From the NCBI GenBank assembly GCA_030390025.1, contig CM059432.1:8742001-8806000 (forward strand): a stretch of DNA of 64,000 nucleotides. The letters are read 5' to 3'. The position numbers and the translations under genes were made by a program. Under the pieces are notes generated by a model. It was not told the DNA's origin. It saw only the letters and a program-made list of their open reading frames with translations, and did no database searches. Shown one piece after another: positions 2,951 to 64,000 of the stretch (positions are counted from its first letter, which is position 1; each line of letters opens with the position of its first letter). The DNA comes from Squalus acanthias (taxonomy: Eukaryota).

Positions 2951-4904
2951 GGCCGAGAAATTTGTTCACTCCAGCCTGCGAATGTGTCGGCCCCGTGAAC
3001 ACCCAATATTGGGCCTCGGGCCGACATTTACGTGAGACCGGTGAGCTGCAGACGCCTTCTGGGATTCTCCAGGCAGCTCGCTGGCGAAGTCGGTTATAAT
3101 TCCGGGCTCCTGCTGTGCGCCGGCAACGGGCCTCGGATAAATCTGGCGAAGCTGGGTGTGGGGGGGCAGCGATCGGGAGGGGCAGGGTCAATCGGGGAGG
3201 AGAGGGGCGAATGGGAGGGAGGGGGGGTGACTGGGAGGGGGAGGGGGGTGATCGGGAGGGTCACAGGTCAATCGGGGAGGAGAGGGGCGAATGGGAGGGA
3301 GGGGGGGTGACCGGGAGGGGGAGGGGGGTGATCGGGAGAGGGGCTATCGGGAGGGAGGGGGGCGATCGGGAGGGAGGGGGGCGATCGGGAGAGGGGCTAT
3401 CGGGAGGGAGGGGGGCGATCGGGAGGGAGGGGGGGCGATCGGGAGAGGGGCTATCGGGAGGGAGGGGGGCGATCGGGAGGGAGGGGGGCGATCGGGAGAG
3501 GGGCTATCGGGAGGGAGGGGGGCGATCGGGAGAGGGGCTATCGGGAGGGAGGGGGGCGATCGGGAGGGAGGGGGGCGATCGGGAGAGGGGCTATCGGGAG
3601 GGAGGGGGGCGATCGGGAGGGAGGGGGGCGATCGGGAGGGAGGGGGGCGAACGGGAGGGAGGGGGGCGATCGGGAGGGAGGGGGGCGATCGGGAGGGAGG
3701 GGGGCGAACGGGAGGGAGGGGGGCGATCGGGAGGGAGGGGGGCGATCGTTAGGGAGGGGGGCGAATGGGAGGGAGGGGGGCGAACGGGAGGGAGGGGGGC
3801 GATCGGGAGGGAGGGGGGCATACGGGAGGGAGAGGGGCGAACGGGAGGGAGGGGGCGATCGGGAGGGAGGGGGCGATCGGGAGAGGGGCTATCGGGAGGG
3901 AGGGGGGCGATCGGGAGGGAGGGGGGCGATCGGGAGGGAGGGGGCGAACGGGAGGGAGGGGGGCGAACGGGAGAGGGGCGAACGGGAGGGAGGGGGCGAA
4001 CGGGAGGGAGGGGGGCGAACGGGAGGGAGGGGGGCGAACGGGAGAGGGGCTATCGGGAGGGAGGGGGGCGAACGGGAGGGAGGGGAGCGATCGGGAGGGA
4101 GGGGGGCGAACGGGAGAGGGGCGAACGGGAGGGAGGGGGGCGAACGGGAGGGAGGGGAGCGATCGGGAGGGAGGGGGGCGAACGGGAGGGAGGGGGCGAT
4201 CGGGAGAGGGGCTATCGGGAGGGAGGGGGGCGAACGGGAGGGAGGGGGGCGATCGGGAGGGAGGGGGCGATCGGGAGGGGGGAGGGGGTAAGCGATAAGG
4301 AGGGGGTCGAGCGGGTGCCAGCAATGGTCTTCGACACTGCAGTGGACCCGTTAGGAGCACTTCGGTGGAATGTGCTGAGGATGTGAAAGGATCAACACCA
4401 ATACAATTATTCTTTTTCCATTTCCTTCTTTCTATCTCTCTCTCTGCTTGCCTCTCACATTAATTTTGTTGTTGTCCCTGTCTCTGTTTGTATCAGATTT
4501 TTTTTTCCTTTCCCCTTTCTCTCTGTAAGTCTCTCTATTCGTTAGGAGACCTGAGGAGAGAAGGAGCAGAATTGGTCGGAAGGCTGGGGTGAATCGTTGC
4601 GATATGGAGCACCGCCAGGTGGACAGGCTCCACTACTTTAGACCCTCCATGGTTAGGCCCAAGACCTTCAGCTCCATCACAGGTCACTGTTGTATTATTC
4701 TTCTCACAGGTCATCTTATCGATCTGTGCTGAAAGAGCACTACGTGTAACAGATCACTGAGGTGTTACAACTCCACAGGGTTGAAGTTCGGGAGTGCCCA
4801 TTTTGGCCGGAAATGGGCGCGCAACTCCTGCCCGCCATACAGGGGGATTGGTAGACCTGTTAGTGCTTGAAAAACGGGCAATGCGCGGCCGAATTTATAG
4901 GCCC
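2951..4904. mobile_element. Putative degenerate Harbinger-type non-autonomous element(s) hosting the G-rich minisatellite
   Basis: CpG-rich ends GGCCGAGAAATTT and GAATTTATAGGCCC loosely resemble the TIR of 58734-59475. No matching TSD, so it may be two fragments. Confidence 0.3.
3165..4290 (+). repeat. G-rich minisatellite, 15-20 bp units (GATCGGGAGGGAGGGGGGC and variants)
   Basis: Directly visible tandem units with GATC, GAAC and TATC variants; accounts for the Gly/Arg-rich ORFs at 3115-4386. Confidence 0.95.
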
Positions 4905-5828: not shown

Positions 5829-8800
5829 GGTGGTGGATGGGGTGAATATTGAAGGTGGTGGATGGGGTGAATTTATGAAGGTGGTGGATGGGGTGAATAT
5901 TGAAGGTGATGGATGGAGGGTATATTGACGGTGGTGGATGGAGTGAATATTGAAGGTGGTGCATGGGGTGAATATTGAAGGTGGTGGATGGGGTGAATAT
6001 TGAAGGTTGTGGATGGAGTGAATATTAAAGGTGGTGGATGGGGTGAATATTGAATGTGGTGGATGGAGTGAATATTGAACGTGGTGGATGGAGTGAATAT
6101 TGAAGGTGGTGGATGGGGTGAATATTGAAGGTGTCGGATGGGGTGAATATTGAAGGTGGTGGATGGGGTGAATATTGAAGGTGGTGGATGGGGTGAATAT
6201 TGAAGGTGGTGGCTGGGGTGAATATTGAAGGTGGTGGATGGGGTGAATATTGAAGGTGGTGGATGAGGGAATATTGAAGGAGGTGGATGGGTGAATATTG
6301 AAGGTGGTGGATGAGGTGAATATTGAAGGTGGTGGCTGGGGTGAATATTGAAGGTGGTGGATGGGGTGAATACTGAAGGTCGTGGATGGAGTGAATATTG
6401 AAGGTGGTGGATGGAGTGAATATTGAAGGTGGTGGATGGGGTGAATATTGAACGTGGTGGATGGGGTGAATATTGAAGGTGGTGGATGGAGTGAATATTG
6501 AAGGTTGTGGAGGGATTGAATATTGAAGGTGGTGGATTGGGTGAATATTGAAGGTGGTGGATGGGATGAATATTGAAGGTGGTGGATGGGGTGAATATTG
6601 AAGGTGGTGGATGGGGTGAATATTGAAGGTGGTGGATGGGGTGAATATTGAAGGTGGTGGATGGAGTGAATATTGAAGGTGGTGGATGGAGTGAATATTG
6701 AAGGTGGTGGATGTGGTGAATATTGAAGGTGGTGAATGGGGTGAATATTGAAGGTGGTGGATGGGTGAATATTGAAGGTGGTGGATGGGGTGAATATTGA
6801 AGGTGGTGGATGGGGTGAATATTGAAGGTGGTGGATGGGGTGAATATTGAAGTTGGTGGATGGAGTGAATATTGAAGGTGGTGGATGGGGTGAATATTGA
6901 AGGTGGTGCATGGGGTGAATATTGAAGGTGGTGGATGGGGTGAATTTATGAAGGTGTTGGATGGGGTGAATATTGAAGGTGGTGGATGGGGTGAATATTG
7001 AACGGTGGTGGATGGGGTGAATATTGAAGGTGGTGGATGGAGTGAATATTGAAGGTGGTGGATGGAGTGAATATTGAAGGTGGTGGATGGAGTGAATATT
7101 GAAGGTGGTGGATGGAGTGAACATTGAAGGAGGATGATGGGGTGAATATTGAAGGTGGTGGATGGGGTGAATATTGAAGGTGGTGGATGGAGTGAATATT
7201 GAAGGTGGTGGATGGGGTGAATATTGAAGGTGGTGGATGGAGTGAATATTGAAGGTGGTGGATGGGGTGAATATTGAAGGTGGTGGATGGGGTGAATATT
7301 GAAGATGGTGGATGGAGTGAATATTGAAGGTGGTGGATGGGGTCAATATTGAAGGTGGTGGATGGGGTGAATATTGAAGGTGGTGGATGGTGTGATATTG
7401 AAGGTGGGGGATGGGTTGAATATTGAAGGTGGTGGATGGGGTGAATATTGAAGGTGGTGGATGGGAGTGAATATTGAATGTGGTGGATGGGGTGAATATT
7501 GAAGGTGGTGGATGGGGTGAATATTGAAGGTGGGGGATGGGGTGAATATTGAAGGTGGTTGATGGGGTGAATATTGAAGGTGGTGGATGGGGTGAATATT
7601 TAAGGTGGTGAATGGGGTGAATATTGAAGGTGGTGGAGGGAGTTAATATTGAAGGTGGTGGATGGAGTAAATATTGAAGGTGATGGATGGGGTGAATATT
7701 GAATTTAGTGGAGGTAGTGAATATTGAAGGTGGTGGATGGGGTGAATATTGAAGGTGGTGGATGGGGTTAAACTTGAAGGTGGTGGATGGGGTGAATATT
7801 GAAGGTGGTGGATGGAGTTAATATTGAAGGTGGTGGATGGGGTGAATATTGAAGGTGGTGGATGAGGTGAATATTGAAGGCGGTGGATGGGGTGAATATT
7901 GAAGGTGGGGGATGGAGTGAATATTGAAGGTGGTGGATGGGGTGAATATTGAAGGTGGTGGAGGGAGTGAATATTGAAGGTGGTGGATGGGGTGAATATT
8001 GAAGGTGGTGGATGGGGTGAATATTGAAGATGGTGGATGGGGTGAATATTGAAGGTGGTGGATGGAGTAAATATTGAAGTTGGTGGATGGAGTGAATATT
8101 GAAGGTGGTGGCTGGGGTGAATATTGAAGGTGCTGGATGGGGTGACCAATTAAGGTGGTGGATGGGGTGAATATTGAAGGTGGTGGATGGGGTGAATATT
8201 GAAGGTGGTGGATGGGGTGAATATTGAAGGTGGATGATGGGGTGAATATTGAAGGTGGTGGATGAGGTGAAAATTGAAGGTAGTGGATGGGGTGAATATT
8301 TAAGGTGGTGGATGGTGTGAATATTGAAGATGGTGGATGGGGTGAATATTGAAGGTGATGGATGGGGTGAATATTGAAGTTGGTGGATGGGGTGAATATT
8401 GAAGGTGGTGGATGGGNNNNNNNNNNNNNNNNNNNNNNNNNNNNNNNNNNNNNNNNNNNNNNNNNNNNNNNNNNNNNNNNNNNNNNNNNNNNNNNNNNNN
8501 NNNNNNNNNNNNNNNNNNNNNNNNNNNNNNNNNNNNNNNNNNNNNNNNNNNNNNNNNNNNNNNNNNNNNNNNNNNNNNNNNNNNNNNNNNNNNNNNNNNN
8601 NNNNNNNNNNNNNNNNAAGGTGGTGGATGGGGTGAATATTGAAGGTGGTGGATGGGGTGAATATTGAAGGTGGTGGATGGGGTGAATATTGAAGGTGGTG
8701 GATGGGGTGAATATTGAAGGTGGTGGATGGGGTGAATATTGAAGGTGGTGGATGGAGTGAAATTTGAAGGTGGTGGATGGGGTGAATATTGAAGGTGGTG

Positions 8801-35838: not shown

Positions 35839-36270
35839 AAAGAAAGACTTGGATTTATATAGAGCCGTTTCATGACCTCAGGACGTCCCAAAGTGCTTTA
35901 CAGCCAATGAAGTACTTTTTGAAGTGTAATTACTGTTGTAATGTGGGAAACGTGGCAGCCAAATTGCACACAACAAGCTCCCACGAACAACAATGCGATA
36001 ATGACCAGATAATCTGTTTTAGTGGTGTTAGTTGAGGGATAAATATTGGCCATGACACAGGGGAGAACTCCCCTGCTCTTCTTTGAAATAGTGCTATGGG
36101 ATCTTTTACGTCCACCTGAGGGGGCCGACGAAGCCTCGGTTTAACGTCTCATCCAAAAGGCAGCACCTTCGACAGTGCAGCACTCCCTCAGCACCGCACT
36201 GGAGTGTCAGACTAGATTTTGTGCTCAATTCCCTGGAGTGGGATTTGAACCCACAACCTTCTGACTGGTA
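35839..36270 (-). mobile_element. DeuSINE (SacSINE1-like), near full length
   Basis: Tail, Deu core and B-box region (GGTTCAAATCCC on the minus strand) are present. Confidence 0.85.
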
Positions 36271-36889: not shown

Positions 36890-37630
36890 GGGGAGAATTT
36901 TAGCCCCAGAAACCGGGTGGGTTGGAGTTGGGTGGGAAGTTAAAGAGTTAAAAAAAACTGAATCCCAACCCCAACCCGCCCACTGCCGGTTTTAATGGAG
37001 GTGGGATAGGGGGTGGGCGGGCAGCCAACCTGCTGCCAGGAGGCGGGTCGCCCATTTAAATATTATAATGAGGCTGTCGTACCTCATGGCGATCCACCAT
37101 TTCAAATTTAACTGTGGGTGGGTGGGTTTCCCGGGCCTCGGGAAACCCGCCAGCTAAAGGGAGGCGAGGACTGCTGGATCCAGGAGGCACGTGCCTTTCC
37201 ACGTACCTCCTGGATCCAGTGTTCCTGCCTCACCCATCTGCCATGGTCAGACACTCCCCCGACCCCCCGCCCTAAGATCCCCACCCCCCCCACAAGGCCT
37301 CCAATTTCCCCCCTGACCTCCCTTCCCCGAGGCCTGCGATCGTGCTCCGACCTCCCTAACCCCCAAGGCCTCCGGTCTCCCTCCCGACCTCCCCTCCCTC
37401 GAAGCATCCGATCGCCTTCCCGGCCTTTCCCCTCCAGCCCCGAACCTCCGGCTCTCAACCAACAACCCCCCCACCCCCCAAATCCCTCCCTCCCTCCTCT
37501 CTGTGGTCTAGTGCTGCAGGCCTAGGAACCTGGGAACTGGTGTTTTGAAATGCTAATCAGGCCCTGCCATTAAATTTGGCAGGGCTTGCAGGAAACCCGT
37601 TCTCCGGCCCAACATGGACAGGTTAGTCCC
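36890..37630. mobile_element. Harbinger-type MITE-like fragment with C-rich interior
   Basis: Starts GGGGAGAATTTT; internal inverted GGGTGGG/CCCACC motifs. Right TIR not clear. Confidence 0.4.
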
Positions 37631-37941: not shown

Positions 37942-39152
37942 ACTGTAAACACGGCTTACCACGGGTTAACAGTCATTCCACCAGAGACTAGTAAGAGGTC
38001 CTGACAAAGGAGATAACTGCAGCAAGGGAGGAGATTGCAGAGGCAAAATCTCATTACCTATTTGTCAGCCAAATAATCACTTCAACTTATCTTTCTGTCA
38101 TCTTTTAATGAGTGTGTGAATTGTACAATGCCATTTAGCAGAATGCCTCTTATAACAATAAAGATTCATTTTAATCAGAAGCTGAAAGGGTGTCCAATGT
38201 GACTAACAAAAGTCTTCAAAGCCTTTTGATATTTCCTGTTTTTATAGAATGGGGATTTAATTATTCAGATTGTTAAAATAGAACGATCATGTTTTTAAAT
38301 GATGCGCTCTTTTGAATCAATTTTATCATGCCTTGGACATTCGGAATTAATTATTGTTCGTAACTTCGCACACTTAAAGTCTTGGCTGTGACATGCTTCA
38401 ACCTTTAACAAAATAATTGCTAAACTTAACTAGAATGGTGGGCATTCAACAGGGCAGGGAGCCTCAGGGAGCCCTGGCTAACTTTTCTACTCCCTCGCCA
38501 TGCGTGTTTAACACAGATCAGGAACTGAACCTGAATCTGAAGTTAGAGGTACATTTATACCAATAAACCCATAACAAAGTCAAAGTTGTTCCACAGTCAG
38601 CTCTTCGCCATCTCTTAATAACCTGGGGCCAGTAGCACCAAGAACGTGCCAATTCCCGAGGGTGCGGATCCAGAACTTCTCACAAGACTCATTCTGCCTT
38701 GCTAGACAGGAGCTTACTGTGAGGCGATTGGAACCAGCAACTGTTTGATCGAAAACTAAACACCTAGTCGCTGGTGCACACTGACCCTTACAGGTTAGAC
38801 AGTGAGCTCTGTGCTGCTATTAAAAGAAAAAACAAACAAACAAATAGTGAGCTATACTACAGCGGTTGGATTCCAGGAAGATTGTGGTCGATTCCACCCC
38901 CCACCCCTCTTGGGAGTTCAAGTTACATCCCTTGCTGAACTCAGCAAGTCTCTGCGAACATCGAACGGTACATTGCAGCATTCAACAACAAGGAAATGCT
39001 TCCGAGAACATTCTCGCGACACTTTTATTTAATGGTTTCCTTTAAAGGTGCTCTCATTATGACATGATGCGGAGATGCCGGTGTTGGACTGGGGTGGACA
39101 AAAATGAGAAGTCGCACAACACCAGGTTATAGTCCAACAGTTTTATTTGAAA

Positions 39153-39189
39153 TCACGAGCTTTCGGAGCGATGCTCCTTCGTCAGGTAA
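39153..39189 (-). ncRNA. Mirror hammerhead ribozyme motif on the opposite strand
   Basis: Reverse complement reads TTACCTGACGAAGGAGCATCGCTCCGAAAGCTCGTGA. Confidence 0.65.
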
Positions 39190-39194
39190 AGACT

Positions 39195-39231
39195 TTACCT
39201 GACGAAGGAGCAGCGCTCCGAAAGCTCGTGA
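39195..39231 (+). ncRNA. Minimal type I hammerhead ribozyme motif (Penelope-type)
   Basis: TTAC-CTGACGA-A-GGAGC-AGC-GCTCC-GAAA-GC-TC-GTGA: conserved CUGANGA and GAAA boxes, 5-bp stem II, stem I TTAC/GTGA, vestigial stem III with AGCT palindrome. Confidence 0.7.
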
Positions 39232-39469
39232 TTTCAAATAAAACTGTTGGACTATAACCTGGTGTTGTGCGACTTCTCATTATGACATGGCACTGAATCA
39301 CTTTTTAGTTATCTTACTTTCATTTCTGTGAGGTGACTGTGGCAATGAGTGGAATCGCCATAAACTCCAAGGAGTTTGATGACCTCAACAAGGTCAGCAA
39401 TGGTAAGAATGGTTTCAAATGAAGAACAGGGCAGATAGCGGAATCACAGAGAAACATATGGGCACTCGA

Positions 39470-40800
39470 TAGCTGTGGCTCAGTGGGTAGCACCCTTGCC
39501 TTGGAGTCAGAAGATTGTGGGTTCCACGTCTCACTCCATATTAAACAAAAATCTTGGCTGAAAGTGCAGTGTAGTACGAAGGTGCCGTCTTTTGGATGAG
39601 AAGTTAAACCGAGGCCCCGTCTGCTCTATCAAGTGGATGTAAAAGATCCCCAAGGCACTATTGCGAAGAAGAGTAGGGGGAGTTATCCCTGATGTCCTGG
39701 TCAATATTTATCCCTCAATCAACATCACTAAAACAGATCTTCTGGGCATGTAAGGGGTTTTCTCCGATACTGGTCCCCCGTTACACACAGTTCTTGGACG
39801 TCAGGATTTATAAGAACAAAATACACACGGCACAGGGTTTTGGCTCAACCTTTGATTTGTTTGTTTATTGAACACACACACACACACAATTACTTCCCCA
39901 GTATAAATCCCTACGATTTATATCAGGCTAACAACCCCAAAATACAAACCCCTACGCAAGGGTCATTTGCATCGAAGCAATATGACACAGTTAAACCCGT
40001 CCGCGATTTGACTGTTACATACAAAGTTACCCAGACTCAATCACAAAACCCTTATTGTGATCTGACTGAAACTCACAAACTTACTCAGACTCAATCATAA
40101 AAGCCCCCTCTATGATTTGACTGAAACATACAATCACCACTCCCGATTGGCTGTCTCCTGGAGTTGATTGTAGGCCCAAATTCTTCTGCTCATTGTTCTT
40201 GCATTAGCTTCCGACACCGACTCTCTTCATAGTGCCTTTTCCTTTAAACCAAAAACCAACTTGCAATATCTAGAAACACATATCCTGGCCCCCTCCTGTG
40301 CACACAATGGCCATATCAAAATGTGTGAATGTCTCTAACAGAGAACTCTTGATGGCTAATTGTCCCTCGTATTGTCCATTGATTACTTGGGCACCGACTG
40401 TCTGCATCGGGGTCCTTTCTGACAATGCAACCTTCCCAAGGTGACTGCATATGCTAGTTGTTGCTTTCTGTTAGCATTCGTATTCAAATGGTTCAGGGCC
40501 CGGCCCATTGTCTCGGGCTGCACTGATACCATGGTCCAAGGTGAACAATGTAACCCCTTAAGGTAAATGAATATGCGTAAATGTTCCTTTTCAGAAGCAT
40601 TCATATTTTAGATTGTCTGTGAAAAGTGATATCCGGTCTCTTGATGGTTCGTAGTTTCGGCTGCAATGTTTGAATTAACCCTTTATTGCCCATCTCTTTT
40701 TGCGGGCTGTGCAGTTCTGGGTTTTATATTTCATAGTCCAATTTTTACCATGGGGGGGAGGAACGGATCCTACAGGCATTATCATATTGCTGTTTATGGG
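39470..40800 (+). mobile_element. DeuSINE interrupted by a solo LTR (SINE parts ~39470-39748 and 40775-40800)
   Basis: tRNA-like head TGGCTCAGTGGG..GTGGGTTC and Deu core; the SINE resumes as (GGCA)TTATCATATTGCTGTTTATGGG after the LTR. Confidence 0.8.
39749..40774 (-). mobile_element. Solo LTR (1026 bp), ERV1- or Gypsy-type
   Basis: TG...CA ends (TGTAAGG / CCTACA), 4-bp TSD GGCA (39745-39748, 40775-40778), AATAAA on the minus strand at ~39864. Confidence 0.75.
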
Positions 40801-43800
40801 AAATTGTGCCCTCTACACCCAAGTCCAAGTCATTAATATATATCAAGAAAAGCAGTGGTCCTAGTACCGACCCCCTAGGGAACACCACTGTATACCTTCC
40901 TCCAGTCCGAAAACAACCGATCACCACTACTCCGTTTCCTGTCACTGAGCCAATTTCCTATCCATGCTGCCACTGTCCCTTTTATTCCATGGGCTTCAAC
41001 TTTGCTGGAAAGCCAATTATGTGGCACTTTATTAGACGCCTTTCAGAATTCAATGTACACCACGTCAACCGCATTACCCTCATCAACCCTCAGTTACCTC
41101 ATTAAAAAACGCAATCAAGTTAGTTAAACATGATTTGCCTTTAACAAATCCGTGCTGGCTTTCCTTAATTAATCCACACTTGTCCAAGTGACTGTTAATT
41201 TTGTCCCAGATTATCATTTCTAAGAGCTTCCTCACTACCAATGTTAAACTGACTGGCCTGTAGTTGCTGGGATTATCCACACACCATTTTTTGAACAAGG
41301 GTATAACATTTGCAATTCTCCAGTCCTCTGGCACCACCCCTGTATCTAAGGAGGATTAGAAGATTATGGTCAGTACCTCTGCAATTTCCATTTTTACTTC
41401 CCTCACCATCCTAGGATGCATCCCATCTGGTCCTGGTGACTTATCAACTTTAAGTACAGCCAGCTTTTCTAGTACCTCCTAGTTATCAATTTTTATCCCA
41501 TCCGGTATCTCAACTACCTCTCTTTCACTATGGCTTTGGCAGCATCTTCTTTCTTGGTAAAGACAGATGCAAAGTACTCATTTAGTACCTCAGCCATGCC
41601 CTCTGCCTCCATGTGTAGGTCTCCATTTTGGTCCCTAATCGGCCCCACCCCTCCTCTTACTACCCGTTTACTATTTATATGCCTATAGAAGACTTTTGGA
41701 TTCCCTTTTAGGTTAGCTGGCAATCTATTCTCATACTCTCTCTTTTCCCCTCTTATTTCCTTTTCCACTTCCCCTCTGAACTCTCTATATTCAACCTGGT
41801 TCTCACTTGTGTTCTCAACCTGATATCTGTCAAACGCCCCCTTTTTCTGCTTCATCTTACTCTCTATCTCTTTCATCATTCAAGGAGCTCTGACATTGTT
41901 TGCCCTACCTTTCCCCCTAGTGGGAATGTACCTCGACTGTACCCGAACCATCTCCTCTTTAAAGGCAGCCCATTGTTCAATTACAGATTTGCCTGCTAAT
42001 CTTTGATTCCAATTTACCTGGGGCAGATCCGTTCTCAATCCACTGAAACTGGCTTTCCTCCAATTAAGTATTTTTACTCTAGATTGTTCCCTGTCCTTTT
42101 CCATAGCTAATCTAAACCTTATGATACTATGATCACTGTTCCCTAAATGTTCACCTACTGATACTTGCTCCACTTGACCCACCTCATTCCCCAGAACCAG
42201 ATCCAGCAATGCCTCCTTCCTTGTTGGGCCGTAAAAGTACTGATCAAGAAGGTTCTCCTGAACACACTTCAGAAATTCTTCCCCCTCTCTGCCCTTTACA
42301 CTATTACTATCCCAGTCTATTAGGATAGTTGAAGTCCCCCATTATCTATAGTTCTTGCATCTCTGTAATTTCCCTGCAAATTTGCTCCTCTATATCCTTC
42401 CCACGAGTTGGGGGCCTATAGAATACACCTAGTAGTGTAATGGCACCTCTATTGTTTCTTAACTCTAACCAAATAGATTCTGTCCATGACGCCTCCAGGA
42501 CATCCTCACTCCAGCACTGTAATATTCTCCTTAATCAATACTGCCACCCCACCTCTTTTCTTTCCTTCCCTATCTTTCCTGAACACCTTATATCCAAGAA
42601 TATTTAATACCCAATTCTGTATTTTTTTGAGCCAGGTCTCCATTATCACCACAACGTCATATTCCCATGTGGCTAGTTGCACCTGCAGCTCACCAACCTT
42701 ATTTACCACGCTTCGTGCATTCACACACATGCACTGTAAACCTATCTTAGAACTTCTTGTATTCTCTCTTAGTCTGACCCCATCTAATAACCTCACTATC
42801 TCTTACTCTAGTGCTATCTGTCTCTCCCCATCCTTTGTGCACTTTGTTTCTCCTTTCTAATGCTGCATCCTGGTGCCCATCCTCCTGCCAAATTAGTTTA
42901 AACTCTCCCCAACAGCACTGGCAACCGCCCCTCCCTCAACCCACCCCCCCCCACCCCCCCCCCCCCCCCCCGCCCCCGCCGTGATGATATTGTTACCAGC
43001 TCTGTTGAGGTGCAACCCCTCTGGCCTGTACAGGTCCCACCTCCCCCAGAACTGGTCCCAATGTCCCAGGAATCTAGAGCCCTCCCTCCTGCACCATCTC
43101 TTCAGCCACGCATTAATCTGCTCTATCCTCCTATTTCTATACTCACTCGCGCGTGGCACCGGGAGTAATCGGAGATTACTGCCTTTGAAGTCCTGCTTTT
43201 TCATCTCTTTCCTATCTCCCTAAAATCTGCCTGCAGGACCTCATCCCTCTTTCTACCTATGACGTTGGTGCCGATATGGACCACGACCTCTGGCTGTTCA
43301 CCCTCCCCCTTCAGAATGCCCTGCAGCCGTTCAGTGACATCCTTGACCCTGGCACCAGGGAGGCAACATACCATCCTGGAATCACGTCTGTGGCCGCAGA
43401 AACGCCTGTCTGCTCCCCTAACTATCGAATCTCCTATCACTATTGCTTTCCCGATCTTCCTCCTCCCCCCCTGTACAGCTGAACCACCCATGGTGCCATG
43501 GACTTGGCTCTGGCTGTGCTTCCCCAGAGGAACCATCGCCCTCACCAATACTGGTTAGAGAGTGAGATGCACTCAAGGGACTCTTGCACTACCTGCCTGG
43601 TCCTGCTTGTCTGTCTGATGGTCACCCATTCCCTCTCTGCCTGCAAACTCTTACGCTGCAAGATGACCACCTCCTGAAACGTGCTATCCACCTAGCTCTC
43701 AGCCTCACGGATGCACTGCAGTGACACCAGCTGCTGCTCAAGCTCGGAAACCTATTAACTAACTTAACAGAAATAAACTCAAGACTTAAAAAAACAATCA

Positions 43801-44273: not shown

Positions 44274-45469
44274 GGGAACTTCACTCTGTATCTAACCCGT
44301 GCTGTACCTGCCCTGGGAGTGTTTGATGGGACAGTGTAGAGGGAGCTTTACTCTGTATCTAACCCGTGCTGTACCTGCCCTGGGAGTGTTTGATGGGGCA
44401 GTGTAGAGGGAGCTTCACTCTGTATCTAACCCGTGCTGTACCTGCCCTGGGAGTGTTTGATGGGACAGTGTAGAGGGAGCTTTACTCTGTATCTAACCCG
44501 TGCTGTACCTTCCCTGGGAGTGTTTGATGGGACAGTGTAGAGGGAGCTTTACTCTGTATCTAACCCGTGCTGTACCTTCCCTGGGAGTGTTTGATGGGGA
44601 CAGTGCAGAGGGAGCTTTACTCTGTATCTAACCCGTGATGTACCTGCCCTGGGAGTGTTTGATGGGACAACGTAGAGGGAGCTTTACTCTGTATCTAACA
44701 CGTGCTGTGCCTGCCCTGGGAGTGTTTGATGGGACAGTGTAGAGGGGGCTTTATTCTGTATCTAACCCGTGCTGTACCTGCCCTGGGAGTGTTTGATAGG
44801 ACAGTGTAGAGGGAGCTTTACTCTGTATCTAACCCCGCGCTGTACCTGCCCTGGGAGTGTTTGATGGGACAATGTAGAGGGAGCTTCACTCTGTATCTAA
44901 CCCGTGCTGTACCTGCCCTGGGAGTGTTTGATAGGGACAGTGTAGAGGGAGCTTCACTCTGTATCTATCCTGTGCTGTACCTGCCCTGGGAGTCTTTGAT
45001 GGGACAGTGCAGAGGGAGCTTTACTCTGTATCTAACCCATGCTGTACCTGCCCTGGGAGTGTTTGATTGGACAGTGTAGAAGGAGCTTTACTCTGTATCT
45101 AACCCGTGCTGTACCTGCCCTGGGAGTGTTTGATGGGACAGTGTAGAGGGAGCTTTACTCTATATCTAACCCGTGCTGTACCTGCCCTGGGAGTGTTTGA
45201 TGGGACAGTGTAGAGGGAGCTTTACTCTGTATCTAACCCGTGCTGTACCTGCCCTGGGAGTGTTTGATGGGACAGTGTAGAGGGAGCTTTACTCTGTATC
45301 TAACCCGTGCTGTACCTGCCCTGGGAGTGTTTGATGGGGACAGTGTAGAGGGAGCTTCACTCTGTATCTAACCCGTGCCGTACCTGCCCTGGAGTGTTTG
45401 ATGGGGCAGTGTAGAGGGAGCTTTACTCTGTATCTAACCCGTGCCGTACCTGCCCTGGAGTGTTTGATG
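44274..45469 (+). repeat. 67-bp tandem repeat, ~18 copies (ACTCTGTATCTAACCCGTGCTGTACCTGCCCTGGGAGTGTTTGATGGGACAGTGTAGAGGGAGCTTT)
   Basis: Directly visible, highly homogeneous units; resembles a dispersed minisatellite common in shark assemblies. Confidence 0.97.
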
Positions 45470-47017: not shown

Positions 47018-47420
47018 GGACAAAAGCAAAATACTGCAGATGCTGGAAATCTGAAATAAAAATAGAAAATGCTGGAAATACCCTACAGGTCGGGCAGCAT
47101 CTGTGGAGAGAGAAACAGAGTTAACGTTTCAGGCCGATGACCCTTCGTCAGAACTGGAAAAAGCTGGAGATGGAACAGGTTTTTAAGCAAGTGCAGGGAC
47201 AGGGAAAGGGGGGAGGGGAGGAAAGAACAAAAGGGAAAGTCTGTGATAGGATGGAAGGCAGGAGAGATTAAGAGACATTAAGAGATGGTGCAAGGCAAAA
47301 GGAGATGGTAATGGGACAAGTTAAGAAACAAAAGATGGCTCTAGGTGAAGTGTAAATGGCACAGAATGAAAGACAGCTGCCATGTGGGAGAGAGAAAAAT
47401 AAATAAATAAATAAAATAAA
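47018..47420 (-). mobile_element. Penelope-like element terminal fragment
   Basis: AAAATACTGCAGATGCTGGAAATCTGAAATAAAA..CAGCATCTGTGG terminal motif plus a hammerhead motif on the minus strand. Confidence 0.65.
47119..47155 (-). ncRNA. Minimal hammerhead ribozyme motif (Penelope-type)
   Basis: Minus strand AGTT-CTGACGA-A-GGGTC-ATC-GGCCT-GAAA-CG-TT-AACT; stem I AGTT/AACT; AACGTT palindrome in place of stem III. Confidence 0.6.
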
Positions 47421-51124: not shown

Positions 51125-51697
51125 CTTTGAGGCCAAAGTTTCATGAGAGAAGCGATGTCCTGATTTACATGATGTTGTTTCCTTGGATCACTTATTTTAC
51201 AGTTTTATTGCTTCAAAGCAGTTGGTTTGTTTCACCTTGAAGGAAAAAACTAACTACAACCTGCAGACACATCACCTTTTATCACGCCCAGGGGCACAGT
51301 TAAAACCCACCCAACCAGCAATGACGCTGAAGAATTTTACGCCCTTTGCTTCTTCGGAGGCCAAACTAATGTCTCCTTTTAGTTATGTCCTCATTTTTAT
51401 GAACTCAATGAACTGCCATCCTCTCAGAGGATATGGGACCATACCATGGCAAAGTAATACACGGATACAATCCCCTATGCTTCACACAATAAGTGATTGG
51501 AGGATACACCCAACAGACCAGTGTGCCTCCACTCCTGGAATCCCAATTGGACGATACTTGTTCGAGAAATTATCAGAGTGAGGAGGGGAAGGGATTTTTT
51601 TCCTACATATTCTAGACATGCCTGAAAAAATCTAGCCATGTTAAGCTTTCATCAGCAGAAGACCATTCTGGATCACCATTGATTTAAACCTGCTTGC

Positions 51698-51860
51698 TTA
51701 GGAATATAAGAACAGGAGGAGGCCATTCAGCCCCTCGAGCCTGTTCCACCGTTCAATCAGATCATGCTGATCCGCACCTCAACTCCATTTACCCGCCTTT
51801 TGCTCCATATCTCTTGATACCCTTGCCGAGCAAAAGTCTATCGATCTCAGTCTTGAAAAG
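51698..51860 (-). mobile_element. CR1 3' end (probably the same element as 53731-53944 and 58165-58390)
   Basis: FKTEIDRLLLGKGIKRYG and 3'UTR on the minus strand. Confidence 0.8.
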
Positions 51861-51869
51861 TGTCCAGCC

Positions 51870-53730
51870 TTGTGCAATTGTCGAATTACAGTATGCAGAC
51901 GACGCTTGCGTCTGTGCACACTCGAATGTCGAACTCCAAACCATCGTCAACACCTTCACCGAAGCGTACGAGAGCATGGGCCTTACACTAAACATCCGTA
52001 AGACAAAGGTTCTCTACCAACCTGCCCCCGCCACAAAGTACTGCCCCCCGATTATCAAAATCCACGACAAGGCCTTGGACAACGTGGACCACTCTCCATA
52101 CCTCAGGAGCCTACTGTCAACAAGGGCAGACGTCGATGACGAAGTCCAACACCGCCTTCAGTGTGCCAGTGCAGCCTTCGGTCGCCTGAGGAAGAGAGTG
52201 TTTGAAGACCAGGACCTCAAACCCGGCACCATGCTCATGGTCTACAGAGCAGTAGTGATACCCGGCCTGCTTTCTGCCTCAGACACATGGATAATGTACA
52301 GCAGGCACCTCAAAACACTGGAGAAGTACCACCAACGCTGCCTCCGCAAGATCCTGCAAATCCATTGGCAGGATAGGCGCACCAACGTCAGTGTTCTCGC
52401 TCAGGCCAACATCCCCAGCATCGAAGCTTTGACCACGCTCGATCAGCTCTGATGGACGGGTCACATTGTCCGCATGCCCGATACGAGACTCCCAAAACAA
52501 GCACTCTACTCGGAGCTCCGGCACGGCAAGAGAGCCCCAGGTGGGCAGAGGAAACGCTTCAAGGACACCCTCAAACCCTCCTTGAAAAAGTGTAACATCC
52601 CCACCGACACCTGGGAATCCCTGGCCCAAGACCGCACAAAGTGGAGGAGAAGCATCCGGGAAGGCGCCGAACACCTCCAGTCTCTTCGCCGGGAGCAAGC
52701 GGAAGTCAAGCTCAAGCAGCGCACGTCAACCCAAGCACCCCACACCCACCCGTCCCCTTCAACCACCGTCTGCCCCACCTGTGACAGAGACTGTGGGCTG
52801 GATTTTCATTGACCCGTGGAGTCGGGTTTGGAGGCGTGTGGGGGGTTAAAGTTGCAGATTCAGGGGTCCCGACCCCATCCCGCACCCAACCCCCCTCCAT
52901 GCCAGTTTCGCTGGCGGCGGGTACCCGACCTGTGCTGAGACCCGCCGCCCCGAGGCGAGAAGGGGATTAGTGACAATTAACTGCCTGTTAACAGGTAGTT
53001 AACAGGCAGTTTTTTGCCTAATCCCTATTTTAATGGCTGAAATGTGGGCTTCCCGACAGGTCCCAACCACGCCAAGTTAGCGAGGCGGACCATGGGTCTG
53101 CAGGGGTTGGAGGGGTCGATATGTCCGGTGGGCAGGTGAGTGATGGGTGCATGTGTGCAGAGGTAAGTGTGTAAGGTAAGTGCAAAGTGTGGGAAAAAGT
53201 TTTACTTACCTTAACTTCCTCCTGCAGGTGTCAGCCCTTCAGGTCTCGGGAGTCAGAAATCTCACCGGCACAGAAAGCACAATGGCTGTGGTGCTGTCAA
53301 AAGTTTCAGCCTCTGTTTTCTGTGCTGGAATGATTTCTAACTCAGCCTGAGAGGAAGGACTCAAGTTAGAAGACAGATTGTCAGTGTTTGACAGCTTCAC
53401 AGAGCTGTCAAATGCTGATATTTCATCTCTCAAAAGCTCTTGACAGATGAAATGTCAATCTGTGACATCACCTGTTGCCGGGTGGCCCTTAATTGGCCTG
53501 CTGAGCTCACTGAGCGGGCTCAACAAGGTCAATCAAGGGAAAATACAGTGGGTTGGCCACAAGTCGATGGAGGCGGGTCTACAACCCAAAAAGTGGGATT
53601 CCCGACTCCATCACGACCCCAGTATCAAAATCCAGCCCTGTAGGTCCTGCATTGGACTCATCAGTCACCTGAGAACTCATTTTTAATGTGGAAGCAAGTC
53701 ATCCTCGGTTCCGAGGGACTGTCTAAGAAG
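51870..53730 (+). mobile_element. RTE-clade LINE, 5'-truncated (RT from YADD to the 3' end), split by a MITE
   Basis: VELQYADDACV..GLTLNIRKTKV..AFGRLRKRVF; in-frame stop at 52450-52452; 3' part nearly identical to 35069-35543; ends TAAGAAG. Confidence 0.92.
52795..53638. mobile_element. 844-bp non-autonomous PIF/Harbinger element
   Basis: TIR GGGCTGGATTTT/AAAATCCAGCCC; TGT TSD (52792-52794, 53639-53641). The left ~90 bp is the reverse complement of the right end of 34257-35061. Confidence 0.9.
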
Positions 53731-54265: not shown

Positions 54266-54459
54266 GGGGGCTTCTTCCTGTCTTTTTCTGTGGTTGACAT
54301 TTTTGCACTACTCGTTCTGAGAGAGAGAGAGAGATGCGGAGAGAGAGAAAGAGAGACTTCTGCATTGAGTCAACGCTTTGTGAGGTAGTTTTGCCTACTG
54401 ATCCTAACTTCGCTGGTACTTTAGTTGCTGTCCTTCATAACTTTGCTTGCAAAGAGACT

Positions 54460-55620
54460 ATGGGGGCTGCACTGAATGGGGGCGTCGTCCTGCTCCAGCT
54501 GAATCGGAGGACACAGAGACGCAGAGAGAGAGTGGCAATGATGGCCAGACGGAGGAGGGCCAACAGGCATATGTACAGGAGAGCTTACCCTCCCAGGGTA
54601 TATCGTGAACAGCTCTCCTACATTCATATGTCTGAGGAGCTGTGTTTGCGAAGGCTGCGATTCAGCAAGGAGGTGGTCACTGAGCACTGCCACCTGCTGC
54701 AGCCAGATCTGCAGCCTCAACTGAGGTCCAGGACGTCTCTGTCGGTGGCAGTGAAGGTCACAGTGGCTCTCAACTTCTATGCTACTGGCTCATTTCAAGC
54801 TGTTGCTGGGGACCTCGCCAATATCTCCCAGTTCGCGGTGCATTGCTGCATCCGGCAGGTCACAAATGCCCTCTTTAAAAGGAGACGAGAGTTCATCTCT
54901 TTCCCCATGACCCCAGACAAGCAGCGTGACCGCGCTCTGGGCTTTGCGAGGATAGCGGGCTTCCCCATGGTGCAGGGCGCCATTGACTGCACGCATGTGG
55001 CTTTGCGTGCTCCACATGAGAATGCCGAGGAATTCCGGAACAGAAAGGGGTTCCATTCCTTGAATGTTCAGTTGGTCTGTGACCACAGACAGCTGATACT
55101 CGCTGTCAATGCCCACTATCCTGGCAGCTGCCACGATGCTTTCATCCTGCGCCAGACTACTGTGGCAGAACTTTTCGAGGCACCGCATCAGCCAGTTGGT
55201 TGGCTTCTCGGGGACAAGGGGTATCCATTGAGCACCTGGCTGATGACACCGCTCCGTACGCCCAACACCCCTGCTGAGCTGCGGTACAACGAGAGCCATC
55301 AAGCTACCAGGAACATCATTGAGCGCACAATCGGCGTGCTGAAGCAACGGTTCCGCTGTCTCGACCATTCTGGAGGAGCCCTGCAGTACTCGCCTGAGCG
55401 AGTATCCAACTTCGTAGTTGTGTGCTGCATGTTGCATAACATGGCAATCGTCAGGACCCAGCCAATGCCACCAGGCCTTGGAGCACCACCAGAGGAGGAG
55501 GAGGAAGAGGAGGAAGAGGACGAGGAGGATGATCATCAGCAGCACCAAGGCGGGAGGGCGGCCCACAATGGTGAAACTGCAAGGGCCGTCCGTCAACGGC
55601 TGATAGCAAGCCGCTTCTAG
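54460..55620 (+). CDS. PIF/Harbinger DDE transposase (HARBI1-like, DDE_Tnp_4 type), ~386 aa, uninterrupted
   Basis: HTH-like region VALNFYATGSFQ..ISQFAVH; catalytic motifs GAIDCTH, PGSCHDAFI, LLGDKGYP, NIIERTIGVLKQRFRCL, CCMLHN; acidic tail. Likely start ATG 54460 (the frame is open from 54334). Confidence 0.93.
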   Translation: MGAALNGGVVLLQLNRRTQRRRERVAMMARRRRANRHMYRRAYPPRVYREQLSYIHMSEELCLRRLRFSKEVVTEHCHLLQPDLQPQLRSRTSLSVAVKVTVALNFYATGSFQAVAGDLANISQFAVHCCIRQVTNALFKRRREFISFPMTPDKQRDRALGFARIAGFPMVQGAIDCTHVALRAPHENAEEFRNRKGFHSLNVQLVCDHRQLILAVNAHYPGSCHDAFILRQTTVAELFEAPHQPVGWLLGDKGYPLSTWLMTPLRTPNTPAELRYNESHQATRNIIERTIGVLKQRFRCLDHSGGALQYSPERVSNFVVVCCMLHNMAIVRTQPMPPGLGAPPEEEEEEEEEDEEDDHQQHQGGRAAHNGETARAVRQRLIASRF

Positions 55621-55932
55621 GGCCCCTGCTGTGGAAATGGCTTCTGCCATTGCTAACAACATCAATGAACCCAGCACGCAACCCCTAAGCCGGACAAGGC
55701 ACCAATGATTCCAAACACCAAACATGTATATTTTGAATACAAAAACTTATTTATTTTACAAACTCTGTGTGTGTCATTTCCTCATGACAAACTCATAGAA
55801 ATAAACACAAAAAAACAGTCATTAACATAACTGGTTCTCACAACCTGGAGATAATGTCCAAAACACTAGACAAAAGTTGGACCACGAACCTCGGCCTTTA
55901 ATAAAAAAATGACCAGCATTTTGTCACACCTC

Positions 55933-56909
55933 CTACTTTTTGCCCTTCGAGGGTGATCTCCTTCCCTTGCGCACTTCCCCCCTTCTAACCCTACTGCCCC
56001 TCCGTAATGGGACCTCAGTGGCTGCAGCAAGGCTGGTGGAAGGCTGCAGATTGTCAGACCCTGACACTGCAGATGCCCCTGAAGGACGGCCTCGACCAGT
56101 TCTGGGCCTGGAGGGCCCGGCTGCAGACTGCACCAACTCTGCATGGGCGGCAGCAGTCTGTCCTACAGGCGGTGGCAAGTGCAGTGGAGAAGTGACAGTG
56201 TTGGCAGCAGGAATGCTGTCATCGTGAGAGAGGACAGCAACTCCCTGCTCGCCCGACACACTGGCACTCCCACGGGGCAGCACTTCAGCATCCGGAGCAA
56301 TCTGCTGGAGCACAGATTGCTGGCCTGCTGCGGCGCGGTGAGAGCCCCGGGGACATGTGAACGAACCATCGAGGTTGGCAGCAGTCAGTGCTCGCGTGGC
56401 CTCAATCTGAGTCTGCATGAGAGCAGTCAGAGATGGGATCATGGCAGTCAGTGACTGAATTGCAGCACTAAGCGTTAGTGTGGCATCCGCCTGTGCTACA
56501 GCGAAGTGCTCCACACTCCTTGCCAGTGACTCAATGCATTCGGGCACCCTTCCCACTGCACCCATGAGCTCAGTGTGTATGCCCACCGCCTGGGTGTTCA
56601 TTTCTGCGATCAGCCGCTCCTCCTCTGCGTCCATTGCAGTAGGAGTCGCTGGTATACTCTCCCTCTGGGGAGAAGGCCCCCGTTCTTCCCTACCCCCATG
56701 GCATTGCTGCAGCCCACTGGGTCCTGGAGCTTCACCCTCATCAGACCCTTCCCCCCTGCTCCCCTCCAGGGAAGGCGTGTTCCCAGTGTGGGCATGGGCT
56801 TCCTCGGGAGAGGGTGGCACTGATGCTCCGGCTTCCTCTTCCTCCTCGGCTGCAGCTTCACTCCCACTGGCAGCTTCAGGGCCCGTCTCCTCAGCTGGTG
56901 AATCACCAT
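55933..56909 (-). pseudogene. Harbinger Myb/SANT-like protein, exon 3 (acidic, coiled-coil-like and basic tail)
   Basis: Acceptor CCCTGCTTTCAG|AT; phase 1 joins in frame to ORF 55933-56820; ends RRGSRVRRGEVRKGRRSPSKGKK* (NLS-like). Spliced total 1377 nt. Confidence 0.75.
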
Positions 56910-57068
56910 CTGAAAGCAGGGAGGTACAAGAGTGGCTTTAGCGTGAGGACAGGGTGGCAGTAAGGGAGGAATAAGTGCAGCGAGTTAGCAAGTTGGATTG
57001 AAAGTGTCAAAGGCTGGTGTTGTGAGGGACAAGTGGAAGGACAGAGGACAAAAAGGTGATGACCTTAC

Positions 57069-57231
57069 CATTGCTGTCCAGAACGGGGTCGGCGTCTCCA
57101 GTGGCGACGGGACCGATCACCCGGCTTGCCACAATCCTGTGGACGCGCTCCTCAAGATCGCTGAGGGGTTGCAGCTGAGGCCGCCCTCCACCTGCCCGTT
57201 GCTGCTGTCTCCTATTATGCGCCAGCTTGGC
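57069..57231 (-). pseudogene. Harbinger Myb/SANT-like protein, exon 2
   Basis: Acceptor TTTTACTTGCAG|GCC; AKLAHNRRQQQRAGGGRP..LSDLEERV (TGGG-like motif typical after this domain); donor G|GTAAGG; 163 nt, phase 0 to 1. Confidence 0.8.
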
Positions 57232-57265
57232 CTGCAAGTAAAAGGACAGCATCTGAGTAAATATA

Positions 57266-57429
57266 CAGCCATGGTCTTGCCTGATGTGCCTCCCATAGGT
57301 GAATAGCCCTTACTGTATGCAGCCATGGTCTTGCCTGATGTGCCTCCCATAGGTGAATAGCCCTTACTGTATGCAGCCATGGTCTTGCCTGATGTGCCTC
57401 CCATAGGTGAATAGCCCTTACTGTATGCA
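57266..57429. repeat. Perfect 54-bp triplication in intron 1 of the Myb gene
   Basis: CAGCCATGGTCTTGCCTGATGTGCCTCCCATAGGTGAATAGCCCTTACTGTATG at 57266, 57320 and 57374. Confidence 0.95.
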
Positions 57430-57569
57430 AAGTGTGGAATGTGTGTGTGTGTTTCATGAAAGGGCCATAGGTGTTGGATGAGTGTTGTGCATTGGGGTTT
57501 TAAGACCCTCTGGCCATAGAGTGAGGTTGAGATGGAGGGATGGAGAGGTATTGAGAAAAAGCCACTCAC

Positions 57570-57806
57570 CCTGACGACCCGAGTGAGGTCGTTGAACTTT
57601 TTGCGGCATTGAACATGGGTCCTGGGCACCATGCTCCTGGAGGAGACGCTCTGAGCCACCTCCCTCCACACTCTTCTGTACTCGCGTGGCAAAGGCCTCC
57701 TGCCACTCTCAGGGAAGAGTATACATCTTCTGCGCTCCACCGCACCAACCAGAGCATCCAAGGCCCGCTCGGTGAAGTGCTGAGCTCGTTCTCTCACCCT
57801 CTACAT
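57570..57806 (-). pseudogene. Harbinger Myb/SANT-like DNA-binding protein, exon 1 (premature TAG at codon 2)
   Basis: GCCAAGG ATG TAG AGG GTG AGA..; F..RALDALV..VERRRCILF..W REVAQSVS..RTHVQCRKKFNDL trihelix/Myb motif; donor AGG|GTGAGT at 57569. Confidence 0.85.
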
Positions 57807-61699: not shown

Positions 61700-63235
61700 T
61701 CAACAACAACAACTTGCATTTATATAGCGCCTTTAACATAGTAAAACGTCCCAAGGCGCTTCACAGGAGCGATTACCAAACAAAATTTGACACCGAGCCA
61801 CAGAAGGAGAAATTAGGACAGGAGAACAAAAGCTTGGTCAAAGAGGTAGGTTTGAAGGAGCGTCTTAAAGGAGGAGAGAGAGGTAGCGAGGCGGAGAGGT
61901 TTAAGGGAGGGAATTCCAGAGTTTAGGGCCTTGGCAGCTGAAGGCACGGCCACCAAAGGTGGAGCGATTAAAATCAGGGATGCTCAAGAGGCCAGAATTA
62001 GAGGCGCGCAGATATCTCAGAGGGCTGTGGGGCTGGAGGAGGTTACAGAGATAGGAAGGGGCGAGGCCATGGAGGGATTTGAAAACAAGGATGAGAATTT
62101 TGAAATCGAGGCGCTGCTTAACCGGGAGCCAATGTAGGTCAGTGAGCACAGGGGTGATGGGTGAACGGGACTTGGCACGAGTTAGGACACGGGCAGCCGA
62201 GTTTTGGATGAGCCGAAGTTTACAGAGGATAGAACGTGGGAGGCCGGCCAGGAGTGCGTTGGAATATTCAAGTCTAGAGGCAACAAAGGCATGGATGAGG
62301 GTTTCAGCAGCAGATGAGATGAGGCAGGGGCGGAGTCAGTCGATTTACGGAGGTGGAAATAGGCGATCTTAGTGATGGCGGATATGTGGTCGGAAGCTCA
62401 TCTCGGGGTCAAATATGACATCAAGGTTGTGAACAGTCTGGTTCAGCCTCAAACAGTTGCCAGGGAGAGGGATGGAGTCAGTGGCTAGGGAACGGAGTTT
62501 GTGGCGGGGACTGAAGACAATGGCTTTGGTCTTCCCAATATTTAGTTGGAGAAAATTTCTGCTCATTCAGTACTGGATGTCAGACAAGCAGTCTGACAAT
62601 TTAGAGACAGTGGAGGGGTCGAGAGAAGTGGTAGTGAGGTAGAGCTGGGTGTTGTCAGCATACATGTGGAAACTGATGCTGTGTTTTTGGATGAAGTCGC
62701 TGAGGGGCAGCATGTCGATGAGAAATAGGAGGGGGCCAAGGATAGATCCTTGAGGGACACCAGAGGTAACAGTGCGGGAGCGGGAAGAAAAACCATTGCA
62801 GGTGATTCACTGGCTACGATTAGATAGATAAGAATAGAACCAGGCGAGTACAGTCCTATCCAGCTGGACGACGGTGGAGAGGCGTTGGAGGAGGATGGAG
62901 TGGTCAACCATGTCAAAGTCTGCAGACAAGTCAAGAAGGATGAGGAGGGATAGTTTACCTTTGTCACTGTCACATAGGATGTCATTTGTGACTTTGATGA
63001 GAGCCGTTTCGGTACTGTGGCAGGGAAACCTAATTGGAGGGATTCAAACATGGAGTTCCGGGAAAGATGGGCAAAGATTTGGGAGGCGACAATACGTTCA
63101 AGGACTTTGGAGAGGAAAGAGAGGTTGGAGATGGGGCGGTAGTTTGTAAGGACGGAGGGGTCAAGTGTTGTTTATTGAGGAGAGGTGTGATGATGTCATA
63201 TTTGAAGGAGAGGGACAGTACCTGAGGAGAGACAT
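61700..63235 (-). mobile_element. L2 LINE, 5'-truncated (RT to 3' end), frameshifted
   Basis: Minus strand ISFHMYADNTQLYL, NFLQLNIGKTKAIVF, LHWLPVKQRLDFKIL, GGRAFS..PKLWNSLP; (CAA)n tail. Confidence 0.92.
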
Positions 63236-63236
63236 T

Positions 63237-64000
63237 TCAGTATGGATTTCAAAAGGGAAAGTCTTGCTTGACCAACCTCATTGAATTTTTTGGAGAGGTA
63301 ACAGAGGGAATAGACAAGGGTAATGTAGTAGATGTAATTTATCTAGATTTTCAAAAGGCCTTCGATAAGGTACCTCATAATAGACTAATGAATAAGGTCA
63401 GAGAATGCAGAGTCAGGGGACAAGTAGCAGAAGGGATAGCTAGCTGGCTTCAAGACAGGAAGCAAAGAGTAGGAGTAAAGGGTAGCTATCCACAGTGGCA
63501 GAAGATGGGTAGTGGTGTTCCACAAGGATCAGTGCTGGGACCACTGTTGTTCCCAATTTATATTAACGATTTAGACTTTGGAATCAAAAACACAATTTCT
63601 AAATTTGAAGATGACACCAAATTGGGTGAGTCAATATTGAGGAGGACTGCAACAAAATACAGGAGGACATTAATAAACTTGCAGAATGGGCATATAATTG
63701 GCAAATGAAATTCAACACAGATAAATGTGAGGTATTACATTTTGGTAGGAAGAATAAGGAGGTCACTTATTACTTGGAGGGTGCGAGTCTGGGTGGGGTA
63801 GAGGAGCAAAGGGATCTCGGAGTACAAATACACAAATCACTAAAAGTAGTGACACAGCTTAGCAAGGCCATAAAAAAGCAACCTAGGGTTTATTCCTAGA
63901 GGGATAGAATTGAGAAGTAGTGACAGTTATGCTAAACTTGTATCGAACCTTGGTTAGACCACACTTGGAGTACTGCGTACAATTCTGGTCGCCATATTAT
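63237..64000 (+). mobile_element. CR1 LINE RT region, runs off the window
   Basis: KSCLTNLIEFF..DVIYLDFQKAFDKVPH..GVPQGSVLGPLLF..SKFEDDTKL, MKFNTDKCEVLHFG; frameshifted. Confidence 0.92.

Follow-up and report, generated by a model that had tools for sequence, protein, structure and literature searches.

Two probable Penelope-like ends, 5'-truncated and joined head to head, in the genome of Squalus acanthias

Penelope-like elements, their inverted ends and their hammerheads

Insertions of Penelope-like elements (PLEs) are described, in the accessible text of PMC3846280 and PMC8557442, as carrying an inverted 5'-truncated pLTR, an optional tail and TSDs of 8-10 bp; the accessible part of PMC8969392 is likewise a source for inverted pLTRs, palindromic junctions, one-sided tails and short TSDs. 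The origin of the inverted pLTRs and of the tails is left open (PMC8557442, PMC11167929, in the portions available). The hammerheads of metazoan PLEs, as they appear in the accessible text of PMC4209133, share a CUGANGAH core with an extra unpaired base, a G10.1-C11.1 pair, GAAA, a loopless palindromic stem III, a short helix I and an AU-rich 3' flank. Monomers do not cleave and dimers cleave at a low level; pairs on opposite strands, 100-700 bp apart, are reported in the same paper.

Among the closest systems is Poseidon_Ac (PAc) of the green anole. Its pLTR hammerhead cleaves only with the element's protein, and cleavage is dispensable for insertion in vitro; the protein, a predicted dimer, cuts both strands, extends them and initiates at the two sites that bound the tail (PMC11167929, accessible text). 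A second set of relatives, the non-LTR retrozymes, are non-coding and PLE-derived, carry a type I hammerhead, are arranged as head-to-tail tandem arrays, and are present in the single chondrichthyan sampled (bioRxiv 10.64898/2026.07.22.740005, available portion).

The insertion and its family

The insertion that concerns us here lies in a 64,000-nucleotide stretch of shark DNA, the whole of which is called the window. Very probably it consists of two 5'-truncated copies of a hammerhead-bearing pLTR, drawn from an abundant Penelope-like family and placed head to head by a recent insertion event. At its heart is a 179-nt palindrome, the coordinates of which, first proposed in a sequence-only reading, are borne out: a left and a right arm (39103-39191 and 39193-39281), each of 89 nt and 99% complementary, flank a 1-nt centre at 39192, and the folded hairpin reaches -174.4 kcal/mol (z = -21), which none of 200 shuffles equalled. 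The left arm reads in the sense of the minus strand and, from the comparison of the arms and from contigs, is a 5'-truncated pLTR-like end; the right arm is its inverted counterpart on the plus strand, also 5'-truncated. The insert is asymmetric, in that the left arm extends beyond the palindrome by 36 nt (39067-39102, minus strand): in minus-strand orientation the left copy measures 125 nt, and the right copy is the identical stretch minus its last 36 nt. This 3' extension, confined to one arm, resembles the optional tail of PLEs, for which lengths of 30-40 bp are given in the accessible text of PMC8557442 and PMC11167929.

The whole is bounded by a direct repeat (39052-39066 and 39275-39289) that is identical at 15 of 15 positions, and its right copy shares 7 nt with the right arm, both as the sequence-only reading had it. 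The first 7 nt of the right copy also equal the majority sequence of the family, and the last 3-4 nt of the left copy also fit the family's long 3' end; since family ends fall at 39063/39064, the left copy probably overlaps the element as well, by 3-4 nt. Identical repeats and one difference per 89 nt indicate that the insertion is young, and with nothing present except two pLTR stumps it is also coding-free, as had been supposed. The lone mismatch between the arms (39171/39213) does lie within loop II, where it had been placed. It is no evidence of selection: the chance that a lone mismatch falls in that loop is p = 3/89, and of the 89 arm nucleotides 54 lie outside the ribozyme (39196-39230).

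Comparison with EN+ PLE insertions (PMC3846280 and PMC8557442, as far as their text is available) brings out likenesses and differences. Alike are the head-to-head pLTRs, the palindromic junction, the one-sided tail of 30-40 nt (36 here) and the short TSD. The present insertion differs in comprising only two pLTR stumps with no ORF, in having a TSD of 15 nt instead of 8-10, and in showing microhomology at both outer junctions. Hallmarks of EN+ PLEs that are present here include the minimal hammerhead, a 36-nt tail on one arm with two corresponding family ends, and an inverted 5'-truncated copy with variable truncation; from these non-coding hallmarks, derivation of the family from PLEs can be put forward with considerable confidence. 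A layout of inverted 5'-truncated pLTR plus tail is already described for PLEs, and on the best reading this is not a new class of element. The likeness to PAc (PMC11167929, accessible text) extends to the pLTR hammerhead, the tail between two ends and the AT-rich target (the present TSD has ATT at 39056); the PAc ORF starts at stem II, where the present element, in contrast, has no start codon. With the non-LTR retrozymes, as far as the available text of the preprint (bioRxiv 10.64898/2026.07.22.740005) describes them, the element shares its non-coding nature, PLE derivation and type I hammerhead, but they are head-to-tail arrays and its copies stand head to head on opposite strands; no tandem repeat was found at the element, and with inverted copies its layout is not that of a retrozyme.

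Public contigs place this copy in its family. Four of 24 listed runs were compared: X1, X2 and X12 from organism A (that X12 is RNA is only a guess) and X7 from organism C. Contigs matching the element number 11,211, 16,884, 21,331 and 1,831 in X1, X2, X7 and X12, respectively, and summed depth in the three large runs is of the order of 1e6 over the element against ~5-30 in the flanks (a ratio that is not a copy number). This shows the element to be a very abundant dispersed repeat in two organisms. Among the 24 of 643 loose ends that are listed, those continuing into unrelated flanks (agreement 0.36-0.52) cluster at 39063/39064 and at 39095-39107 / 39277-39283. The first position accounts for 91 and 70 contigs in X1, 107 in X2 and 15 and 12 in X12; loose ends at 39277-39283, the family's short 3' end, at which the tailless right arm stops, account for 25, 38, 195 and 5 contigs. 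The family has long and short 3' ends ~36 nt apart, and the present insertion has one of each. (In organism C only short ends are found among the rows listed for X7, at 39107 and 39277 with 196 and 195 contigs, and organism A lists more long ends; judged from these few rows, tail usage may differ between species.)

The same contigs characterize the centre. Copies of the family fit through 39192 and then run 5' into related sequence that is not palindromic; loose ends just before 39192 occur in all four runs (29, 52, 84 and 5 contigs). Both arms are therefore 5'-truncated, and the source RNA, continuing there in other sequence, had no native hairpin at 39192. (A note on coverage: X12 has family contigs and none from the flanks of this locus, and is uninformative about the present copy; among the contigs listed none crosses either junction by 31 nt, and X2 gets 24 nt into the element; the right flank at 39298-39375 has no coverage in X1 or X2, a gap that proves nothing.) In organism C, a contig of X7 covers 39274-39450 and then continues for 55 letters that do not match the element; residual X7 depth around 39029-39037 is consistent with another piece of that contig. 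This coverage pattern, which comes without the letters themselves, suggests that organism C has an empty site here.

Searches beyond these contigs added little. By blastn there is no second copy of the family in the window, only a 25-nt match of 80%, to another hammerhead, and exact-pattern scans of viral, metagenome and prokaryote genome collections gave 0 matches. The literature searched holds no paper on the present shark family; Repbase, Dfam and most subscription journals were outside that search, so the family may well be catalogued. Three 11-nt words of the element found two matches in the supplement of PMC8557442, both in unrelated context.

The window as a whole is repeat-rich animal DNA, with satellite, fragments of LINE-type RT/endonuclease and a Harbinger-like gene pair. 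The satellite occupies 26.5 kb (5829-32307; 25-nt unit, ~1064 copies, 93% matches, GC skew near 1, a gap of 200 N at 8417-8616), and a second tandem array lies at 44274-45469 (67-nt unit, 17.8 copies, 94% matches). LINE-type fragments at 41086-43219 (minus strand), 51688-52452 (plus) and 62563-63896 have RVT_1, Exo_endo_phos and GDSL-like matches, several under the Pfam cut-off. The Harbinger-like pair (54298-57800) comprises an open 440-aa DDE_Tnp_4 frame (plus strand, E = 4e-40) and a convergent Myb/SANT frame (minus strand, E = 1e-8), and may be a young, near-intact element. An imperfect GC-rich hairpin at 37146-37239 has matches to miRNA models at sub-threshold level only. Directly to the right of the insertion is a dispersed repeat (~39465-39750) with inverted relatives at 36001-36171, which we take to resemble a tRNA-derived SINE; an ARAGORN search of 32000-64000 found no tRNA.

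The hammerhead: sequence, variation and fold

Each arm carries a minimal type I hammerhead core, one on either strand, as the sequence-only reading had claimed. On the plus strand (39196-39230), helix I is formed by 39196-98 and 39228-30, the core by 39199-39205 followed by an extra unpaired A at 39206, and stem II by 39207-11 and 39215-19; GAAA occupies 39220-23, N17 is C39227, after which the cut is predicted, and stem III (39223-26) is loopless and palindromic and is not closable within one molecule. The mirror copy on the minus strand (39154-39188) has its core from 39185 to N17 at 39157 and carries the loop II mismatch at 39171. An AATAAA, read directly from the letters and correctly noted at the outset, lies 3' of the hammerhead in an AU-rich stretch (39237-39242, plus strand; mirror at 39142-39147); a similar AU-rich stretch succeeds the minimal hammerheads of the published alignment (PMC4209133, accessible part).

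That this is the minimal hammerhead of Penelope type with its palindromic stem III, as first recognized, is upheld by agreement with the published consensus (Fig. S3 of PMC4209133, in the text available) at every position, including the extra base before stem II; the stem III letters are identical to those of the turtle row of that paper. A descriptor built from the consensus matches exactly twice in the whole window, once in each arm, and never in 60 order-2 Markov sequences of 37.5 kb each, searched on both strands. The present cores differ from the opposite-strand pairs of PMC4209133, as far as its accessible text describes them, in starting just 14 nt apart. The searched text of its supplement, of which file 1 was outside the search, contains no shark row. 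Hammerhead models, to which the sequence-only reading had looked, find nothing: none of three Rfam scans, on segments of 6 kb, 151 nt and 61 nt (16, 20 and 3 matches), returned a hammerhead family, and the loopless stem III is the likely explanation. (The miRNA matches that Rfam did return fall below gathering scores, merely mirror the hairpin, and are set aside.) Another minimal hammerhead, standing alone and belonging to a different PLE-type family, is found at 47127-47151 on the minus strand; its stem III is palindromic, its helix I has 4 bp, and it escaped the descriptor by virtue of a G-U closing pair in stem II.

Variation among family copies touches the ribozyme sparingly. Fifteen of the arm's 89 positions vary, five of them within the ribozyme: both bases of a helix I pair, N7, N17 and C11.1, where the variant is U and pairing is kept. 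None of 11 core positions has an alternative letter at 5% or more in the four runs (p = 0.13, by itself not significant). The shares of T39196 and A39230 over the four runs are 0.07/0.09, 0.25/0.29, 0.02/0.01 and 0.06/0.05 (r = 0.99, from unphased alleles in four runs of two organisms, which are not four independent points), and such co-tracking is as expected if a U-A pair were exchanged for C-G in helix I. The pattern of variation points to selection on the fold in the source elements and would have no bearing on activity at the present locus.

Could the ribozyme work where it now lies? A transcript entering from either side contains one sense hammerhead with its complement placed before it; an active dimer is impossible in cis, because the two hammerheads are on opposite strands and each transcript has only one. 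In such a read-through RNA the best fold that retains helices I and II is put at -115.3 kcal/mol against -174.4 kcal/mol for the hairpin, a cost of ~59; on these calculated energies the transcript would fold as a long hairpin to the exclusion of the ribozyme, and the competition between double-stranded RNA and ribozyme fold that had been foreseen holds in silico. (The nearest-neighbour energy of the double-hammerhead dimer, -14.7, gives no advantage over two monomers with the same pairs, at -7.5 each; this is uninformative, because tertiary terms and protein are absent from the model.)

Two templates or one?

How did two copies of the same end come to face each other? Given a PLE origin, priming on two templates, at about an even chance of being correct, is placed somewhat ahead of the tentative reading in which the mirror arm was copied from the first cDNA. 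It is preferred because the end of the short arm is one shared across the family and corresponds to an RT start of PAc, and because the PAc protein extends both strands (PMC11167929, accessible text). The following course can be proposed: 1) an RT/GIY-YIG protein acting in trans would nick both strands 15 nt apart, at the outer edges of the 15-mer; 2) each target 3' end would pair with element RNA, over 3-4 nt where the tail ends and over 7 nt where it starts, and prime reverse transcription; 3) both cDNAs would halt just 5' of helix I and be joined by repair. The hammerhead would serve the source element, requiring a second RNA or the help of protein; at the present locus it would be a passenger, since read-through RNA should make the long hairpin. 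No GIY-YIG family was found by Pfam among 131 window ORFs (of 143 listed, of at least 75 aa and outside the satellite, 12 at 2913-4459, in or adjoining low-complexity repeat, were left out). L1 twin priming also involves two primers, an inversion, a TSD and microhomology at the second priming site, as here; it inverts different parts of one RNA, whereas here the same 89 nt occur twice.

The outer junctions bear on this proposal. At 39103-39106 this copy has the letters most frequent in the runs of organism A (59-100% per site); the mirrored bases of the left arm being majority letters, the 7-nt overlap on the right is element sequence that matches the target. Microhomology of target to element amounts to 7 nt at one junction and 3-4 nt at the other. 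Seven matching nucleotides have p = 6e-5 with the register fixed and ~1e-3 with a dozen registers allowed, for a single locus that was chosen for its repeat. Two-sided microhomology, which was not found for PLEs in the literature searched (most subscription journals lying outside it), suggests paired priming on both strands. It does not sit comfortably with PAc, which, in contrast, initiates at RNA sites non-homologous to the cut DNA (PMC11167929, accessible text).

The tentative alternative accepts the same PLE origin and requires only one RNA template: the first cDNA would be copied back upon itself through a fold-back or hairpin-capped intermediate, which would then be resolved at the tail boundary. 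It is the simpler account of two facts that count against two templates, namely that the 5' ends of the arms are no more than 1 nt apart and that two minor alleles (T39196/A39188 and C39227/G39157) are found in both arms. It also has precedent: in their available portions, PMC3846280 proposes self-priming for palindromic junctions and PMC8557442 explains the tail by an intermediate that the endonuclease resolves. Nevertheless, there is no natural hairpin for priming, family copies being non-palindromic past 39192; the short arm ends at the family-wide site that serves PAc as an RT start, according to the accessible text of PMC11167929; and a single active subfamily would equally generate shared minor alleles.

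Is the palindrome, instead, a non-autonomous mini-element, transcribed and mobilized whole? The sequence-only reading took it for a distinct mini-retroelement, and that claim is not supported: other copies run on past the centre in the 5' direction, and their head-to-head joins fall at many different points. Junctions do recur near here, as shown by a centre variant 3 nt shorter (summed depth 2266 in X1, 3 contigs, and 4231 in X2, 9 contigs) and by six contigs among those listed that cross the centre, one of them (X7 record 28) with at least 31 letters on each side; a recurrent RT stop would also yield a recurrent centre. Against mobilization as a unit, breakpoints differ among the best 15 of 245 head-to-head joints (each side only 19-28 nt long), their offset from symmetry ranging between -97 and +8 nt, many copies run 5' beyond the centre, and a perfect 89-bp hairpin would presumably make a poor RT template; this reading is quite improbable. 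(The joints call for caution in another respect. Seven of those 15 best-supported joints, of 245, are mirror-symmetric within 10 nt, against 0.21 under the null, p = 0.02, and the allele difference at 39227/39157 alone produces symmetry. An apparent pile-up of arm 5' ends at the predicted cut site, with joints at 39228-39230 and 39152-39156, was likewise set aside as an effect of alignment, because most family copies differ at 39227/39157, which halts the alignment, and the letters between joints agree.)

An artefact of assembly or of library fold-back deserves mention, perfect palindromes being prone to it and none of the listed contigs spanning the locus, and is very improbable in the face of distinct single-copy flanks, an exact 15-nt duplication, one mismatch between the arms, an X2 contig that joins the left flank to 24 nt of the tail (fewer than the 31 nt required, and from what may be the source sample itself), and a layout that is common within the family. 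Least probable of all is a hairpin DNA transposon (MITE) with hammerhead-like words by chance: a short inverted repeat with a TSD and an open Harbinger-like transposase ORF within the window would suit it, but the inverted repeat is not terminal (the match between the arms ends 36 nt inside the left end), Harbinger elements have TSDs of 3 nt and this one has 15, the minimal PLE hammerhead consensus is followed in full, and the helix I alleles co-track.

To return to two-template priming, a further step may be ventured, although it is unlikely to be correct. The loopless palindromic hammerhead would serve as an RNA dimerization signal: it would pair two RNAs, and a dimeric PLE protein would prime on both target strands through short base-pairing, one for each end of the tail. 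If true, this would account at a stroke for the inversion of one pLTR, for a tail on a single side, for arms whose 5' stops coincide at the margin of helix I and for microhomology at either junction, and the abundance of such stumps would make it checkable by counting.

Taken as a single object, the insertion is one young copy of a huge family in a layout already described, and of little importance. Its kind may matter in two ways. Stumps such as these would, if transcribed, be ready-made double-stranded RNA; Penelope is reported to be heavily A-to-I edited in lizard (PMC5625713, in the portion available). And short intact copies that retain both junctions let priming on two templates be separated from fold-back copying.
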